Of a DNA stretch of 64,000 bases, positions 26,567 to 59,098 are shown in pieces. Position numbers and translations under genes: made by a program. Source of the DNA: Escherichia coli (GTDB lineage Bacteria; Pseudomonadota; Gammaproteobacteria; Enterobacterales; Enterobacteriaceae); the NCBI RefSeq assembly GCF_048403405.1, contig NZ_CP183129.1. One strand, 5' to 3'. Within the stretch, counting starts at the first letter, position 1, and each line of letters opens with the position of its first letter. The notes beneath the pieces are model-generated. The model made no database searches, was not told the DNA's origin, and worked only from the letters and a program-made list of their open reading frames with translations.

Positions 26567-27478
26567 TCATACTGGTAACGCTAGTTGCTTTTTTTTAAAC
26601 GCCTCAATGGTCGATTTATATTTCTCGCAAATCTTTTCTTCGGTAATATCACTATCTGCGGCCAGATTCGCACTTACTATCGCATCCACTTGTTCGGCTA
26701 ATTCGACTTGTTGGCAACCTGCATTAACCAGAAAATTATAAATAAGAGAGTAATCTTCATCCTTCAAAAAAACAGAGGAACCATTACGAAAACGTTCATC
26801 CCCTCCATAGATTTTAAGCGCAAAGCCCAAAGATTCTATGACTATGGCAAAATTATCATCAATTATTTTTTCGTAAATATACCATCCATCGCATTCTTTA
26901 ATTCCACCTCCTGGAATTTGGAGGTCAAATTTACCCCGTTTTAATTTGCTTACTATATCCTCCAATAAGGCATAACCTAAAGACACGTCACCAATCGCCT
27001 GGCGAATATAACCTTTAATCCTTTCCGGTATGTCAGACTGTTTTTTCTGCAGAATATCCCGGGCATACAATCTTCTGTTTTGTTCTAACGGAAACTCGCG
27101 GTTTTTGAAATCCATGAATGAGTTATACTCATTTATTGTTATGGGAATTTCTTCGTATTCAAACCCACTGCCTCGCAATGTCATTATATATTTGGCACCG
27201 TTATCTTTAATGCTGAAACTGATAAGAAACTTATCCATGGCGTGAACATTTTCATTTTTTGATGAAAGCACCTGATAACTACTTTTATCAATCTGAGTTG
27301 CGCAACGAAAGAACTCCCGCAAAGTTAACAGGCTATCATAATTCGAAATCCAATCTTTTTTCTTAAATGCATGCTGGATATTGTTAAAAAAATTGTTTGA
27401 ATGTGTTTTTGTATGCGATGATTTTACGAATAACTCCACCGCACCAATAAAATTATTGTGTCTGATCCTGGGTAACAT
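26567..27478 (-). CDS. ytfI: uncharacterised protein YtfI (AT-rich orphan gene)
   Basis: 303 aa ORF with ATG at 27476-27478; markedly AT-rich; no domain recognisable by eye. Confidence 0.8.
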   Translation of the reverse strand: MLPRIRHNNFIGAVELFVKSSHTKTHSNNFFNNIQHAFKKKDWISNYDSLLTLREFFRCATQIDKSSYQVLSSKNENVHAMDKFLISFSIKDNGAKYIMTLRGSGFEYEEIPITINEYNSFMDFKNREFPLEQNRRLYARDILQKKQSDIPERIKGYIRQAIGDVSLGYALLEDIVSKLKRGKFDLQIPGGGIKECDGWYIYEKIIDDNFAIVIESLGFALKIYGGDERFRNGSSVFLKDEDYSLIYNFLVNAGCQQVELAEQVDAIVSANLAADSDITEEKICEKYKSTIEAFKKKQLALPV

Positions 27479-27690
27479 ATGGCTACCTTATTTTATTTGG
27501 TTATTTTATGTCGCCATTAAATATCTCATTATAGAAGTATAACTATCAAAAAACGCTCATTATTAAAATGTAACTTATTAGCAATTGAATTTTTGCACTT
27601 TAAATACAATCTCTTTTTATTTATAACTTTTTAGGTTGAGAGAAATCAGGATGGCAGAATCAGGAAATACACTGTTTCTGCCATCTGAAT

Positions 27691-32108: not shown

Positions 32109-33083
32109 ATGCCAGTAATGATTAGCGGCGTGCTGTACGCCCTGTTAGCAGGGTTGATGTGGGGGCTTATTTTTGTCGGGCCGTTGATCGTGCCGGAATA
32201 CCCGGCGATGTTGCAGTCTATGGGGCGTTATCTGGCGTTAGGGTTAATTGCGCTGCCCATTGCCTGGCTGGGGCGCGTGCGTCTGCGTCAGTTGGCGCGT
32301 CGCGACTGGCTTACCGCCTTGATGCTCACTATGATGGGCAACCTCATTTATTACTTCTGCCTTGCCAGTGCCATTCAACGTACTGGCGCGCCTGTTTCCA
32401 CGATGATTATCGGCACCCTGCCGGTGGTCATTCCTGTCTTTGCCAATCTGCTTTATAGCCAGCGCGACGGCAAACTCGCGTGGGGAAAACTCGCCCCGGC
32501 ACTGATTTGTATTGGCATCGGCCTGGCGAGTGTGAATATTGCTGAGTTAAACCACGGACTCCCCGATTTTGACTGGGCACGTTATACCTCTGGCATCGTG
32601 CTGGCGTTAGTTTCCGTGGTCTGCTGGGCATGGTATGCCCTGCGCAACGCCCGCTGGCTGCGGGAAAATCCCGACAAACATCCGATGATGTGGGCGACGG
32701 CGCAGGCGCTGGTCACGCTGCCGGTTTCGCTTATCGGCTATCTCGTCGCTTGTTACTGGCTGAATACGCAAACGCCGGACTTCTCCCTACCTTTTGGCCC
32801 CCGTCCGCTGGTGTTTATTAGTCTGATGATTGCAATAGCCGTGCTTTGCTCATGGGTTGGCGCACTCTGCTGGAACGTCGCCAGCCAGCGATTACCGACA
32901 GTGATTCTCGGGCCGCTGATTGTTTTCGAAACGCTGGCAGGTTTGCTGTACACCTTTTTGTTACGCCAGCAAATGCCGCCACTAATGACGCTGAGCGGTA
33001 TCGCACTGTTAGTGGTTGGCGTGGTCATTGCGGTCAGAGCAAAACCAGAAAAACCTTTAACTGAATCTGTCTCAGAAAGTTGA
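32109..33083 (+). CDS. ytfF: EamA/DMT-family inner membrane transporter
   Basis: Polytopic membrane protein; first ATG at 32109, alternative ATG at 32118 (MISGVLYALL). Confidence 0.88.
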   Translation: MPVMISGVLYALLAGLMWGLIFVGPLIVPEYPAMLQSMGRYLALGLIALPIAWLGRVRLRQLARRDWLTALMLTMMGNLIYYFCLASAIQRTGAPVSTMIIGTLPVVIPVFANLLYSQRDGKLAWGKLAPALICIGIGLASVNIAELNHGLPDFDWARYTSGIVLALVSVVCWAWYALRNARWLRENPDKHPMMWATAQALVTLPVSLIGYLVACYWLNTQTPDFSLPFGPRPLVFISLMIAIAVLCSWVGALCWNVASQRLPTVILGPLIVFETLAGLLYTFLLRQQMPPLMTLSGIALLVVGVVIAVRAKPEKPLTESVSES

Positions 33084-33141
33084 CACGCTGGCAGTGAGTT
33101 AAATAAGCCTCTGCTACGTAAGGGTTATAGCTTTTGCCTTA

Positions 33142-33164
33142 AAGATGCATTTAAAATGCATCTT
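33142..33164. promoter_or_regulatory. NsrR operator upstream of ytfE
   Basis: Perfect 23-bp palindrome aagatgcattt-a-aaatgcatctt, 27 nt upstream of the ytfE ATG; matches the NsrR site known for ytfE. Confidence 0.85.
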
Positions 33165-33190
33165 ATCTTATTAAGAATGAGGTATCAGCT

Positions 33191-33853
33191 ATGGCTTATC
33201 GCGACCAACCTTTAGGTGAACTGGCGCTCTCTATTCCTCGCGCTTCGGCTCTGTTTCGTAAATATGATATGGATTACTGCTGCGGCGGTAAGCAAACGCT
33301 GGCGCGTGCGGCGGCACGTAAAGAACTGGATGTTGAGGTCATTGAAGCTGAGCTGGCAAAGCTTGCTGAACAACCGATTGAGAAAGACTGGCGTAGCGCC
33401 CCGCTGGCAGAAATCATCGACCATATCATCGTGCGCTACCACGATCGTCACCGCGAGCAACTGCCGGAGCTGATCCTGCAAGCGACTAAAGTCGAACGCG
33501 TTCACGCCGACAAACCGAGCGTGCCAAAAGGGCTGACAAAATACCTGACTATGCTGCATGAAGAGCTTTCCAGCCACATGATGAAAGAAGAGCAGATCCT
33601 CTTCCCGATGATCAAACAAGGCATGGGCAGCCAGGCAATGGGGCCAATCAGCGTAATGGAAAGCGAGCACGATGAAGCGGGTGAACTGCTGGAAGTAATC
33701 AAACACACTACCAATAACGTCACACCGCCGCCGGAAGCCTGCACCACCTGGAAAGCGATGTATAACGGCATTAATGAACTGATTGATGACCTGATGGAGC
33801 ACATCAGCCTGGAAAATAATGTGCTGTTCCCGCGCGCACTGGCGGGTGAGTGA
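33191..33853 (+). CDS. ytfE: iron-sulfur cluster repair di-iron protein (RIC)
   Basis: 220 aa; ScdA N-domain plus hemerythrin-like His/Glu motifs. Confidence 0.95.
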
Positions 33854-33860
33854 TCTAAAA

Positions 33861-33885
33861 GCTGGATGGCATTGCGCCATCCAGC
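33861..33885. terminator. hairpin between the convergent ytfE and cycA
   Basis: gctggatggc-attgc-gccatccagc perfect 10-bp stem, preceded by taaaa. Confidence 0.6.
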
Positions 33886-33897
33886 ATGATAATGCGG

Positions 33898-35310
33898 TTA
33901 TTTCCGCAGTTCAGCAGCCCGCTTCTTACCAATAAACAACCAGCCCAGCCCCAGAGCGATAAACCACAGCGGGGTAACCAGCAGCGCCTGGCGGGTATCA
34001 TCTTCCAGTGTCAGCAGCACGACCACGAACACAAAGAATGCCATACATACCCAGCACATCAGCTTGCCGAGCGGCATCTTGTAGATTGATTTCTCATGCA
34101 AGTGCGGACGCTGTTTGCGATACACCAGGTACGAGCAAAGGATAATCGTCCAGACGAACATAAACAGAATCGCGGAAACGGTCGTGATCATCGTGAACGC
34201 ACCAATCACGCTGGGATTCACATACAGCATCACCACGCCGCCGAGCAGGCAGATGCAGGAGAAGGTCAGCCCTTTCGCGGGTACTGCGCGCTTAGAGAGT
34301 TTAGCGAACGCTTTCGGTGCCACACCTTCCTGCGCCAGACCAAACAGCATACGACTGGTAGAGAAGACGCCGCTGTTAGCGGAAGACGCCGCAGAGGTCA
34401 GCACCACAAAGTTGATCACGCTGGCAGCCGCAGGCAAACCTACCAACACAAACAGCTCAACGAACGGGCTTTTCTCCGGGACTACCGAACTCCACGGCGT
34501 CACGGACATAATCACAATCAGCGCGAAGACGTAGAACATAATGATACGGATCGGAATGGAGTTAATCGCGCGTGGCAGTGATTTCTCTGGATCTTTGGTT
34601 TCCGCAGCTGTTGTACCTACCAGCTCAATCCCTACGAAAGCGAAAACCGCTATCTGGAATCCGGCAAAGAAGCCACTTAAACCTTTCGGGAACCAGCCGC
34701 CATCATTCCACAAATGCGCGAATGACGCTTCCACACCGGTCGGTGACTGAAAGTGCATCGCCACCATGACCAGGCCGACGACAATCAGCGACACAATGGC
34801 GACGATTTTGATCATCGCAAACCAGAACTCCATCTCACCGAACATTTTCACGGTGGCGAGGTTGAGCGTCAGCAGCAGCACTATCACCGCCAGCGAGGCG
34901 ACCCAGTCGGAGAGCTCGGGGAACCAGAACTGAGCATAAGCCGTGATCGCCACCACGTCTGCCATACCGGTTACAACCCAGCAGAACCAGTAAGTCCAGC
35001 CGGTGAAATATCCTGCCCACGGCCCGAGTAAATCGGAAGCGAAGTCACTAAAAGATTTGTATTCCAGATTCGAAAGCAGCAATTCCCCCATTGCCCGCAT
35101 CACGAAAAAGAGCATAAAACCGATGATCATATAAACGAAAATGATCGACGGCCCGGCAAGGCTAATCGTTTTGCCGGACCCCATAAACAACCCCGTACCA
35201 ATGGCACCGCCAATGGCAATAAGCTGAATATGTCGGTTTGTGAGATTGCGCCGTAGCGACTGTTCAGCCGGAGCCTGATCATCGGCAACGACTTTTACCT
35301 GATCTACCAT
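33898..35310 (-). CDS. cycA: D-serine/D-alanine/glycine transporter (APC family)
   Basis: 470 aa amino-acid permease. Confidence 0.95.
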   Translation of the reverse strand: MVDQVKVVADDQAPAEQSLRRNLTNRHIQLIAIGGAIGTGLFMGSGKTISLAGPSIIFVYMIIGFMLFFVMRAMGELLLSNLEYKSFSDFASDLLGPWAGYFTGWTYWFCWVVTGMADVVAITAYAQFWFPELSDWVASLAVIVLLLTLNLATVKMFGEMEFWFAMIKIVAIVSLIVVGLVMVAMHFQSPTGVEASFAHLWNDGGWFPKGLSGFFAGFQIAVFAFVGIELVGTTAAETKDPEKSLPRAINSIPIRIIMFYVFALIVIMSVTPWSSVVPEKSPFVELFVLVGLPAAASVINFVVLTSAASSANSGVFSTSRMLFGLAQEGVAPKAFAKLSKRAVPAKGLTFSCICLLGGVVMLYVNPSVIGAFTMITTVSAILFMFVWTIILCSYLVYRKQRPHLHEKSIYKMPLGKLMCWVCMAFFVFVVVLLTLEDDTRQALLVTPLWFIALGLGWLFIGKKRAAELRK

Positions 35311-55988: not shown

Positions 55989-58430
55989 TCACTCTGCCAC
56001 TTTTTTCTTCGCCGCACGCTTCGCTTTGGTCGCTGCAGCTATTTTCTGCGTTTTCGCCGATGGCTTTTTCGCTTTTCTCGCGTCTTTCTTCGCCGCTTTC
56101 GGCTTCGTTTTTTTCTCGCCGCGGAAGGCGCTGTCTGGCTCAAAGTTTACCTTTTTACCGACCTGACGACGCTTGCCGCCTTTTTTACCTGCATCGCCTT
56201 TTTTCGCTTTCTCGCGCGCCGTTTTACCGACGTTGCGCGGTGCGCGTTCGCTGGAGATCAGGCTAAAGTCGATTTTGCGCTCGTCCATATTAACCGCTTC
56301 GACGCGAACTTCTACGCGATCGCCCAGGCGATAAGTCTGGCCACTGGATTCACCCATCAGGCGTTGCCCTACCTGGTCAAAGCGATAGTAGTCATTGTCC
56401 AGCGAAGAGACATGGACCAGACCATCAATGAACAAGTCGTCCAGACGGACAAAGAATCCAAAGCCAGCGACGCTGGAAATTACGCCTTTAAAGACGTTAC
56501 CTACCTGGTCGAGCATGAAGTCACACTTCAGCCAGTCAGCTACATCGCGTGTTGCTTCGTCGGCACGACGTTCCGCCATCGAACAGTGCTGACCCAGTTG
56601 CAGCATCTCTTCCATCGAATAATGGTAACCACCGGTTTCAGTGGTGTTGCCCTGATGCCCCTGCTCTTTCGCCAGCAGATACTTAATGGCGCGGTGCAGC
56701 GTCAGGTCAGGATAACGACGAATCGGCGAAGTAAAGTGCGCATAGGACTGCAATGCCAGGCCGAAGTGACCACGGTTTTCCGGATCGTAAATCGCCTGTT
56801 TCATCGAGCGCAGCAGCATGGTTTGCAGCATTTCTGCATCAGGACGATCGGCAACCGACTCCAGCAGCTCCGCGTAGTCACGCGGTTCCGGCTTGTTACC
56901 GCCCGGCAGTTCCAGCCCCAGCTCCGCCAGCACTGAACGGAAAGAGGTAATCGCTTCGGTGCTCGGCTTATCGTGAATACGGAACAGTGCCGGTTCTTTG
57001 GCTTTCTCAACGAAACGCGCCGCCGAGATATTCGCCAGAATCATGCACTCTTCAATTAATTTGTGTGCGTCGTTACGCTGGGTCTGTTCGATACGTTCAA
57101 TACGGCGTTCAGCGTTGAAAATGAACTTCGCTTCTTCGCTCTCAAATGAGATCCCACCGCGTTCTTCACGGGCTTTATCCAGCACTTTATAGAGGTTATG
57201 TAACTCTTCGAGATGCTTAACCAGCGGGGCGTACTGCTCGCGCAGATCCTGATCGCCCTGCAGAATATGCCAGACTTTGGTGTAGGTCAGACGTGCGTGA
57301 GAGCTCATTACCGCTTCATAGAATTTGTAGCCAGTCAGGCGGCCTTTCGACGAAACCGTCATCTCGCACACCATACACAGGCGGTCTACCTGCGGGTTGA
57401 GCGAACACAGACCGTTAGAGAGTACTTCCGGCAGCATCGGGATAACCTGCGAAGGGAAGTACACCGACGTACCACGGTTACGCGCTTCTCTGTCCAGCGG
57501 TGTTGGCGGACGCACATAGTAGCTGACGTCGGCAATCGCGACCCATAAACGCCAGCCGCCGCCGCGTTTTTTCTCGCAGTAAACTGCATCGTCAAAGTCA
57601 CGGGCGTCTTCGCCATCAATGGTGACCAGCGGTAAATCGCGCAGATCGACACGGCCCGCTTTTGCTTCTTCCGGCACTTCTTCTTTCAGCCCGGCAACCT
57701 GTTGCTCAACGGCCTGCGGCCAGATATACGGAATTTCATGGGTACGCAGAGCGATATCAACTGCCATGCCGGTGCCCATATTGTCGCCAAGTACTTCGAC
57801 GATTTTACCCACCGCTTTGGTACGGCGAGTCGGGCGTTGGGTCAGTTCAACCACCACCACAAAGCCCATCCGCGCGCCCATGATCTGATCGGGCGGGATT
57901 AAGATATCGAAGCTCAAACGACTGTCGTCAGGAACCACAAAGCCGACGCCCGCTTCGGTAAAGTAGCGACCAACAATCTGGCTGGTTTTTGGCACCAGTA
58001 CGCGGACAATACGCGCTTCACGACGACCTTTACGGTCAGCGCCCAGCGGCTGCGCCAGCACCTGATCGCCATGAATGCAGGTTTTCATCTGCTCGCTGGA
58101 GAGATACAAATCATCTTTACGCCCTTCAACCCGCAGAAAGCCGTAGCCATCACGGTGGCCAATAACGGTACCTTTCACCAGGTCGAGGCGTTCCGGCAGC
58201 GCATAGCACTGACGACGAGTGAAGACCAGTTGACCATCGCGCTCCATCGCGCGCAGGCGGCGACGCAGGCCTTCAAGCTGCTCTTCGCCTTCAATGTGCA
58301 GTTCTACCGCCAGCTCATCACGGCTGGCCGGTTTTTCACGTTTGGTTAAATGTTCGAGGATAAATTCCCGACTAGGGATGGGATTCGCGTATTTTTCAGC
58401 TTCGCGTTCCTGGAAAGGATCTTGTGACAT
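55989..58430 (-). CDS. rnr: ribonuclease R
   Basis: 813 aa from [10 protein letters not shown] (ATG 58428-58430); RNB and S1 domains, Lys-rich C-terminal tail. Confidence 0.95.
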
Positions 58431-58468
58431 CTCGGTTCCTCCGTTGTCATCTCTGATGAAGATTTTCG

Positions 58469-58894
58469 TCACTCCACCAGCAATAATTTATAAAGCGGTT
58501 GATTCTCTTCAACCAAATCGGCAAGCGTGTAGTTATCCAGTTCCGTAAGAAAACTTTGCACGGCCTTAGAAAGCGCCTGTTTCAACCGACAGGCAGGTGT
58601 AATGTGGCAAAACTCACTGCTGCAATTCACCAGCGATAAGGGCTCCAGCTCGCGCACCACATCACCAATACGTATCGCACTCGCCGGTTTACCCAGACGA
58701 ATGCCGCCATTTTTTCCACGAACAGCAGTCACGTAGCCGGCACGACTAAGTTGATTGATTATTTTGACCATATGATTACGGGAGACGCCGTAGACGTCAG
58801 TCACTTCAGAAATACTGGTCATCCGCCCTTCTGGCAATGACGCCATGTAGATCAGCGCACGTAATCCGTAATCAGTGAAACTCGTTAACTGCAC
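58469..58894 (-). CDS. nsrR: NO-sensing transcriptional repressor NsrR (Rrf2 family)
   Basis: 141 aa with GTG start; three-Cys cluster [12 protein letters not shown]. Confidence 0.93.
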
Positions 58895-59098
58895 ATCAAC
58901 CTCAAAAGGGAAATCGGGAAAAAATACATTTATATTGATGATAAACCAGCCACAAGCTGTGTCGCTAATTTATTTCAGTTCGGGGAAGGAAAAAAGCGAG
59001 GATTTAACACTGTGTCGGATAGCGTAATGGCTTACCCGACACAGCAATGTATCACACTGTTAGCCCGGCAGGCAAAATATCTGCCAGGCGTACCAGAA

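Follow-up and report, generated by a model that had tools for sequence, protein, structure and literature searches.

The NsrR operator upstream of ytfE in Escherichia coli: motif match, conservation and a minority perfectly palindromic allele

In the window, i.e. the whole stretch of 64,000 nucleotides of an Escherichia coli chromosome that has been analysed here, a perfect palindrome of 23 bp is located shortly before ytfE, and the gene of the nitric oxide (NO) sensor NsrR is located some 25 kb away from it. The question raised by this locus is whether the palindrome is the site through which NsrR controls ytfE, or whether it is better read as a hairpin, as the site of another regulator or as a product of chance; a second question is whether the presence of the repressor gene in the same window carries any meaning. 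Our answer to the first question is that the palindrome is, almost certainly, the operator through which NsrR acts on the ytfE promoter; the ytfE NsrR operator at this position is already known. The features that are needed for the first part of the analysis are the following:

33142–33164, no strand assigned: NsrR operator (very probable), with the left half-site at 33142–33152, the centre base at 33153 and the right half-site at 33154–33164
33191–33853, plus strand: ytfE (RIC), the operator-controlled gene, encoding a di-iron protein of 220 aa (NF008221)
33179–33182, plus strand: Shine-Dalgarno sequence GAGG of ytfE, read from the sequence and invariant in a 10-species alignment
58469–58894, minus strand: nsrR, encoding the [4Fe-4S] Rrf2-family NO-sensing repressor, with a GTG start and 141 aa, upstream of rnr

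The inverted repeat, its match to the NsrR motif and the two genes

The sequence read at positions 33142–33164 of the window is AAGATGCATTTAAAATGCATCTT, i.e. AAGATGCATTT-A-AAATGCATCTT, a perfect inverted repeat of the 11-1-11 type. The direct reading and the repeat finder agree on the perfect 23-bp palindrome that had been described in the initial annotation: the two arms (33142–33152 and 33154–33164) are 11 nt long each and 100% complementary, they are separated by a spacer of 1 nt, and the symmetry stops at positions 33142 and 33164, with both outer bases, 33141 and 33165, being A. The distance of 27 nt to the start of ytfE, as it had been given there, is acceptable, since 26 nt intervene between the palindrome and the ATG at 33191, with the count from the last base of the palindrome to the A of the ATG being 27 nt. 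The surroundings are those of the E. coli chromosome: of 5426 complete genomes, 5416 contain the ytfF-ytfE junction, with the annotation ytfF/ytfE, and the 501 bp around the operator match strain TUM14771 and seven others with 100% identity.

The repeat fits the definition of the operators of NsrR (Rrf2 family) in the Enterobacteriaceae, AAGATGCATTT-N-AAATGCATCTT, in which two 11-bp half-sites are separated by a 1-bp spacer. For the scoring of this fit, a weight matrix has been constructed from 25 published NsrR 11-1-11 sites of strain CFT073 (PMC5320621 Table 4), with the ytfE site and one duplicate left out. By this leave-one-out matrix, the score of the ytfE operator is near-maximal (31.5 of a maximum of 31.6 bits, p ~5e-14), and ~7e-9 hits are expected per window at this score; the runner-up full-site match in the window reaches 12.3 bits, a score with ~1.5 hits expected per window, i.e. 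at chance level. The scan of the whole window, the outcome of which could have been a non-significant score, has found the site to be decisively significant, and it parts the operator cleanly from the background. The AT-rich local background leaves this result in place, as the number of matrix hits expected in the ytfF-ytfE spacer is still 1.7e-10. When the NsrR pattern is searched with up to three mismatches, it occurs once in the window and in none of 100 shuffles.

The palindromy of the site has to be viewed separately from its match to the motif. By chance, 0.015 perfect 11-1-11 repeats are expected in 64 kb; the window has seven inverted repeats that are perfect and whose arms are 11 nt or longer, and palindromy alone is therefore weak evidence and is not unique to this position. 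The segment 33142–33164 is unique in that it matches the NsrR motif, not in being palindromic.

Both genes can be identified by their products. The ytfE product scores 417 bits against the NCBIfam YtfE equivalog NF008221 (cutoff 254), and the nsrR product scores 292.8 bits against the NsrR equivalog NF008240 (cutoff 182); the open reading frame together with this family match confirms that nsrR lies at 58469–58894 in the same window, on the minus strand, 25.3 kb from the operator. The NsrR of the window possesses the cluster cysteines Cys91, Cys96 and Cys102 as well as Asp8, carries the Rrf2 wing motif Lx3Gx6Gx2GGx2L at residues 49–67, and matches the structures of the Streptomyces coelicolor protein, ScNsrR (5N07/7B0C), with E = 1.5e-19; a cognate NsrR with its cluster ligands and its DNA-binding wing is thus encoded in the genome of the window.

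With regard to the second question, the sites on which NsrR acts in trans number in the dozens, and the chance that at least one strong site occurs in the 64 kb around nsrR is ~28% (27 predicted sites in 5.23 Mb). Given this expectation, the linkage over 25 kb is without demonstrated functional meaning: the co-occurrence of the regulator and an operator in one window is unremarkable, indistinguishable from chance, and evidence of nothing.

Downstream of ytfE, a separate G+C-rich hairpin, GCTGGATGGCGCAATGCCATCCAGC, is located at 33861–33885, where ytfE and cycA converge, and its scan score is that of a minus-strand terminator; this hairpin probably terminates both genes.

Published binding, conservation across species and alternative readings

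The same 23-mer stands in the first row, with the top score, among the 27 NsrR 11-1-11 sites that have been published for CFT073, where it has a PatSer ln P of -25.13 and is positive by ChIP-seq (PMC5320621). In the CFT073 record NC_004431.1, we have located the identical 23-mer at 5049128–5049150, 26 nt before ytfE, and the published ChIP-seq summit, 5049151, maps 1 nt from it; the peak at ytfE has an enrichment of 9.65x and a -log10 P of 247 (PMC5320621). The CFT073 site (Mehta et al. 2015, PMC5320621) is the same as that of the window in its 23-mer, its position and its flanking genes ytfF and ytfE, without any difference within the site, the window belonging to another strain. The ytfE promoter is also listed as bound in an earlier ChIP-chip study of K-12 (according to PMC5320621), and the comparison with published NsrR ChIP data that had been proposed as a check is thus in agreement with the assignment. 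Binding in vivo (in CFT073 and K-12), NsrR-dependent repression and the cluster chemistry are taken from the literature; the identity of the window's sequence to the ChIP-bound site is observed here.

The regulatory literature points in the same direction. The site had been predicted by comparative genomics (Rodionov et al. 2005), and NsrR is described as a direct repressor of ytfE in a review of 2022 (PMC9268430); repression by NsrR has been reported in both E. coli and Salmonella, and the description of ytfE as a known NsrR target is therefore correct. In CFT073, nitrate raised ytfE expression 69.6-fold (PMC5320621); in a Salmonella nsrR mutant, the ytfE mRNA was up 544-fold, which was the biggest effect measured, and ytfE belongs to the NsrR targets with the strongest derepression. 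The further statement that the site is one of the strongest operators of NsrR can be kept with respect to the motif score and the derepression ratio, but not with respect to ChIP enrichment: the value at ytfE (9.65x) is below those at grxD, hycB, hcp, folB and c0118, which places it about sixth among the promoter-associated peaks (PMC5320621). The operators of hmp, hcp, ygbA, yeaR and tehA in E. coli share with the ytfE operator the 11-1-11 layout, the consensus AAGATGCATTT and the response to NO via NsrR, while the other E. coli NsrR operators of this layout deviate from the consensus at several positions, e.g. TTGATGTATCTCAAATGCATCTT for hmp. The ytfE site is, in this sense, a textbook element: it is the best-matching NsrR operator of E. 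coli, situated before one of the most strongly NO-induced genes, and its value here is that of a positive control, as a reading of the bare sequence has caught a real operator together with its regulator.

The conservation of the site has been followed in the ytfE loci of 80 Enterobacteriaceae species, fetched with a span of +/-1.5 kb, from genera that include Escherichia, Enterobacter, Citrobacter, Klebsiella, Raoultella, Kosakonia, Kluyvera, Lelliottia and Cedecea. An NsrR site of 23.8–31 bits precedes ytfE in 80 of the 80 species, at a distance to the ATG of 26 nt in 66 species, 25 nt in 11, 24 nt in two and 27 nt in one. When the sequences are aligned on the site, conservation is 90% or more in the operator columns, compared with 30–70% in most of the upstream spacer.

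The sequence conservation does not extend to perfect symmetry, as only 14 of 81 species' sites are perfect palindromes, and this bears on the first alternative, by which the inverted repeat would be a hairpin of RNA or DNA, i.e. an intrinsic terminator of ytfF or a structure in the 5' leader of ytfE. A pattern scanner does describe 33142–33164 as terminator-like, with 10 pairs, a loop of 3 nt and a T-containing tail, no other terminator is predicted in the ytfF-ytfE interval, and the segment folds as RNA with -11.4 kcal/mol (z = -2.85 against shuffles); this z-score is uninformative, because any perfect DNA palindrome folds as RNA. The stem has G-C pairs at only three of its 10 positions and its tail, ATCTTATTAA, is not a U-tract, so that the G+C-rich stem and the U-tract by which a terminator is recognised are both missing. 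Across the 81 species, the stem pairs show no compensatory changes: at pair 7-17, 35 of the 81 species have C.A and three have T.A; at pair 10-14, a T.T combination occurs in 22 species; and 23 species have a broken pair 4-20. The variable positions of the stem coincide with the degenerate positions of the NsrR motif, and the base A of the loop, which would be unpaired, is invariant, for which a hairpin gives no reason. One-sided changes of this kind are what independent drift of two half-sites would produce in a degenerate motif recognised by a protein; the non-compensatory substitutions thus favour a protein operator and disfavour a hairpin, and on this ground we have rejected the hairpin or terminator, which we regard as highly improbable.

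The second alternative is that another regulator, e.g. Fur, FNR or IscR, is the main binder of the site. The observation that speaks for it is the derepression of ytfE in strains without FNR or Fur (PMC9268430), but the same source reports no recognised Fur or FNR site and considers the effect to be indirect; the best matches in 33101–33190 are 9/19 to the Fur box and 6/10 to the FNR consensus, and the ChIP-seq data put NsrR itself on the site. The weak consensus matches, together with the view of the effect as indirect, have led us to reject a Fur or FNR site, and we give another main binder a very slim chance. Lastly, a functionless chance palindrome is a negligible prospect: the ytfF-ytfE spacer is AT-rich (GC 0.37) and the seven perfect inverted repeats of the window show that such symmetry occurs elsewhere in it, but the very low expectation under local composition, the retention of both sequence and position in 80 species, and the published binding and regulation speak against it, with the conservation and the ChIP data having already refuted it.

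Proposed promoter geometry and mode of repression

With the palindrome taken as the NsrR operator of ytfE, the question that follows is how it is arranged relative to the promoter. Two elements are concerned:

33152–33157, plus strand: candidate -10 hexamer TAAAAT at the centre of the operator, inferred, with an implied transcription start at about 33164–33165
33112–33127, no strand assigned: tentative, degenerate NarL/NarP-like 7-2-7 element TGCTACG-TA-AGGGTTA, with 10/14 matches

The centre base of the operator (33153, position 2 of the candidate hexamer) is A without exception in 81 of 81 species, whereas no such constancy is seen in other NsrR sites, where the centre base varies freely. 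The central hexamer of all the species is TAAAAT, TAATAT or TATAAT, in which the second base is always A and the sixth always T. To judge from this pattern, the invariant A would fit a -10 hexamer situated within the stretch of the operator left unread by NsrR. In a consensus sigma-70 scan of 32950–33950, a canonical promoter was absent from the ytfF-ytfE spacer, and a text search of the literature for a ytfE transcription start or for an overlap with the -10 element returned nothing usable; in the face of these two results, we infer the -10 overlap. Bodenmiller and Spiro (2006) reportedly describe the repeat, in their abstract, as overlapping the -10 element. A second candidate -10, TATCTT at 33164–33169, is possible at the 3' edge of the operator; it reads TATATT in most of the species.

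The closest structural guide to the bound state is the complex of S. coelicolor NsrR with hmpA1 DNA (PDB 7B0C; PMC9338935), in which a homologous Rrf2 [4Fe-4S] repressor occupies, as a dimer, a 23-bp operator with one H-wHTH per half-site; the wings are located at the ends of the operator, the central 7 bp are without base contacts, and NO destroys the cluster, upon which the DNA is released (PMC9338935). The S. coelicolor operator differs in sequence (AACACGAATATCATCTACCAATT), and the S. coelicolor regulon consists of three promoters only, including that of nsrR itself, in contrast to the nsrR of E. coli, for which we have found no conserved site. By analogy with this complex, a ScNsrR-like binding geometry may be assumed for the ytfE operator.

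In the resulting model, one NsrR homodimer with a [4Fe-4S] cluster in each subunit would bind the 23-bp site, with one winged helix-turn-helix per 11-bp half-site and with the central base pairs left unread by the protein. As the operator would lie over the core promoter, bound NsrR would exclude RNA polymerase and ytfE would be silent; steric occlusion is thus the mechanism suggested by the putative overlap with the -10 element and the transcription start. NO nitrosylates and degrades the cluster, upon which NsrR is released from the DNA and ytfE is strongly induced; NsrR is supplied in trans from the gene 25 kb away.

Upstream of the operator by 13–14 nt, we have found a second conserved block, AAGGGTTATAG in E. 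coli, at 33112–33130. In most other genera this block has a form like TGCCCCT-AA-AGGGGTA, which follows the 7-2-7 pattern of NarL/NarP sites. Scored against the NarL/NarP consensus TACYYMT-NN-AKRRGTA, the element keeps a fixed offset in 79 of 81 species, and 43 of the 81 have 12 or more of the 14 matches; among random 70-nt stretches, 18% reach 10/14, i.e. the score of the window, and 0.6% reach at least 12/14. If the transcription start is near 33164, the centre of the element would be at about -44.5. Control of dnrN/ytfE by NarP in enterobacteria had been predicted by Rodionov (2005), and we tentatively read 33112–33127, by its sequence pattern, as a NarL/NarP-like element that is degenerate in E. 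coli.

The operator is the closing point of a known loop, in which YtfE reduces nitrite to NO, NsrR is inactivated by this NO, and its release leads to the induction of ytfE, hcp and hmp (PMC9052748). Our results leave this known picture unchanged; the minor additions to it are the invariant centre base in 81 species, the conserved NarL/NarP-like element with its degenerate form in E. coli, and the allele frequencies that are given below.

The perfect palindrome as a minority allele, and other candidate NsrR sites

The perfect symmetry of the site in the window depends on a single base of the right half-site:

33158, plus strand: polymorphic base, with G giving the perfect palindrome, and A in K-12 and most E. 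coli

By exact-word search, the G allele occurs in 959 of the 5426 complete E. coli genomes, including that of the uropathogen CFT073. The A allele, which ends in AAAATACATCTT and has one mismatch between its arms, occurs in 4168 of the 5426 (~77%), including K-12 MG1655 and BL21; the representatives of E. coli and Escherichia albertii in our species set also have A at the position equivalent to 33158. The operator of K-12 MG1655, AAGATGCATTTAAAATACATCTT (Bodenmiller & Spiro 2006; Partridge et al. 2009 ChIP-chip), shares with that of the window the locus, the position, the left half-site and 22 of 23 bases, and differs from it by the A in place of the G that corresponds to 33158 (AAAATACATCTT), by which the palindrome becomes imperfect. 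As this change falls on a degenerate Y position of the motif and its predicted cost in score is less than 1 bit, a large functional effect is unlikely. It is conceivable, although we consider it doubtful, that the G/A difference divides E. coli into a symmetric minority and a one-mismatch majority that differ in NsrR affinity, in the basal leakiness of ytfE or in the threshold for NO. Since YtfE makes NO from nitrite and in this way feeds back on NsrR (PMC9052748), such an effect could move the set-point of the whole loop: if it were real, the nitrosative-stress loop could be set differently between lineages, with the predicted effect being small.

The initial annotation had also allowed for further, weaker NsrR half-sites in the window; candidates do exist, and by the matrix scan all of them are at chance level. 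The remaining full-site hits of the whole-window scan score 12.3 bits or less, with at least 1.5 expected, and none is convincing. The best additional half-site is AAGTTACATTT, at 27566–27576 on the minus strand, with 14.3 bits and 0.29 expected per window; it is adjoined by a weak match to the full site at 27590–27612, itself at chance level. This region is a spacer of 27% GC, located between ytfJ and cysQ, upstream of a hypothetical gene of 303 aa (26567–27478, minus strand), and the extra matches at 27566–27612 are probably an effect of composition.

Another half-site is located at 58921–58932, 27–38 nt upstream of the GTG of nsrR, where it reads AAAATACATTT on the plus strand (58921–58931) and TAAATGTATTT on the minus strand. 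A single half-site suffices at some NsrR targets; the score of this one is at chance level, with about one expected per window. The regions upstream of nsrR have been compared in seven genera, i.e. Citrobacter, Salmonella, Cronobacter, Kosakonia, Shimwellia, Dickeya and Yersinia: only E. coli and, in part, Citrobacter have the half-site, and conservation is lacking in Cronobacter, Kosakonia, Shimwellia, Dickeya and Yersinia. Near nsrR, no peak appears in the CFT073 list (PMC5320621), which covers the promoter-associated ChIP-seq peaks of a study with 45 further, non-promoter peaks. On these two results we have rejected autoregulation of nsrR through the half-site at 58921–58931 as unsupported.

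The comparison of the nsrR upstream regions has also revealed a block, GTGGCTGGTTTATCATCA, at 58936–58953 on the minus strand, that is shared by E. coli and genera up to Dickeya and Yersinia and lies in DNA that is not conserved; the hexamer TATCAT within this block is a possible -10 element of the nsrR promoter. At the other end of nsrR, the open reading frame of rnr, as listed, runs to a GTG at 58472 and overlaps the nsrR stop (region 58430–58472); the 14 residues at its N-terminus seem to result artificially from choosing the first possible start, and in other genera the start of rnr is located 37–44 nt after nsrR, or 244 nt after it in Yersinia. The GTG start of nsrR itself and the leader GAGGTTGAT are largely conserved across the genera compared.
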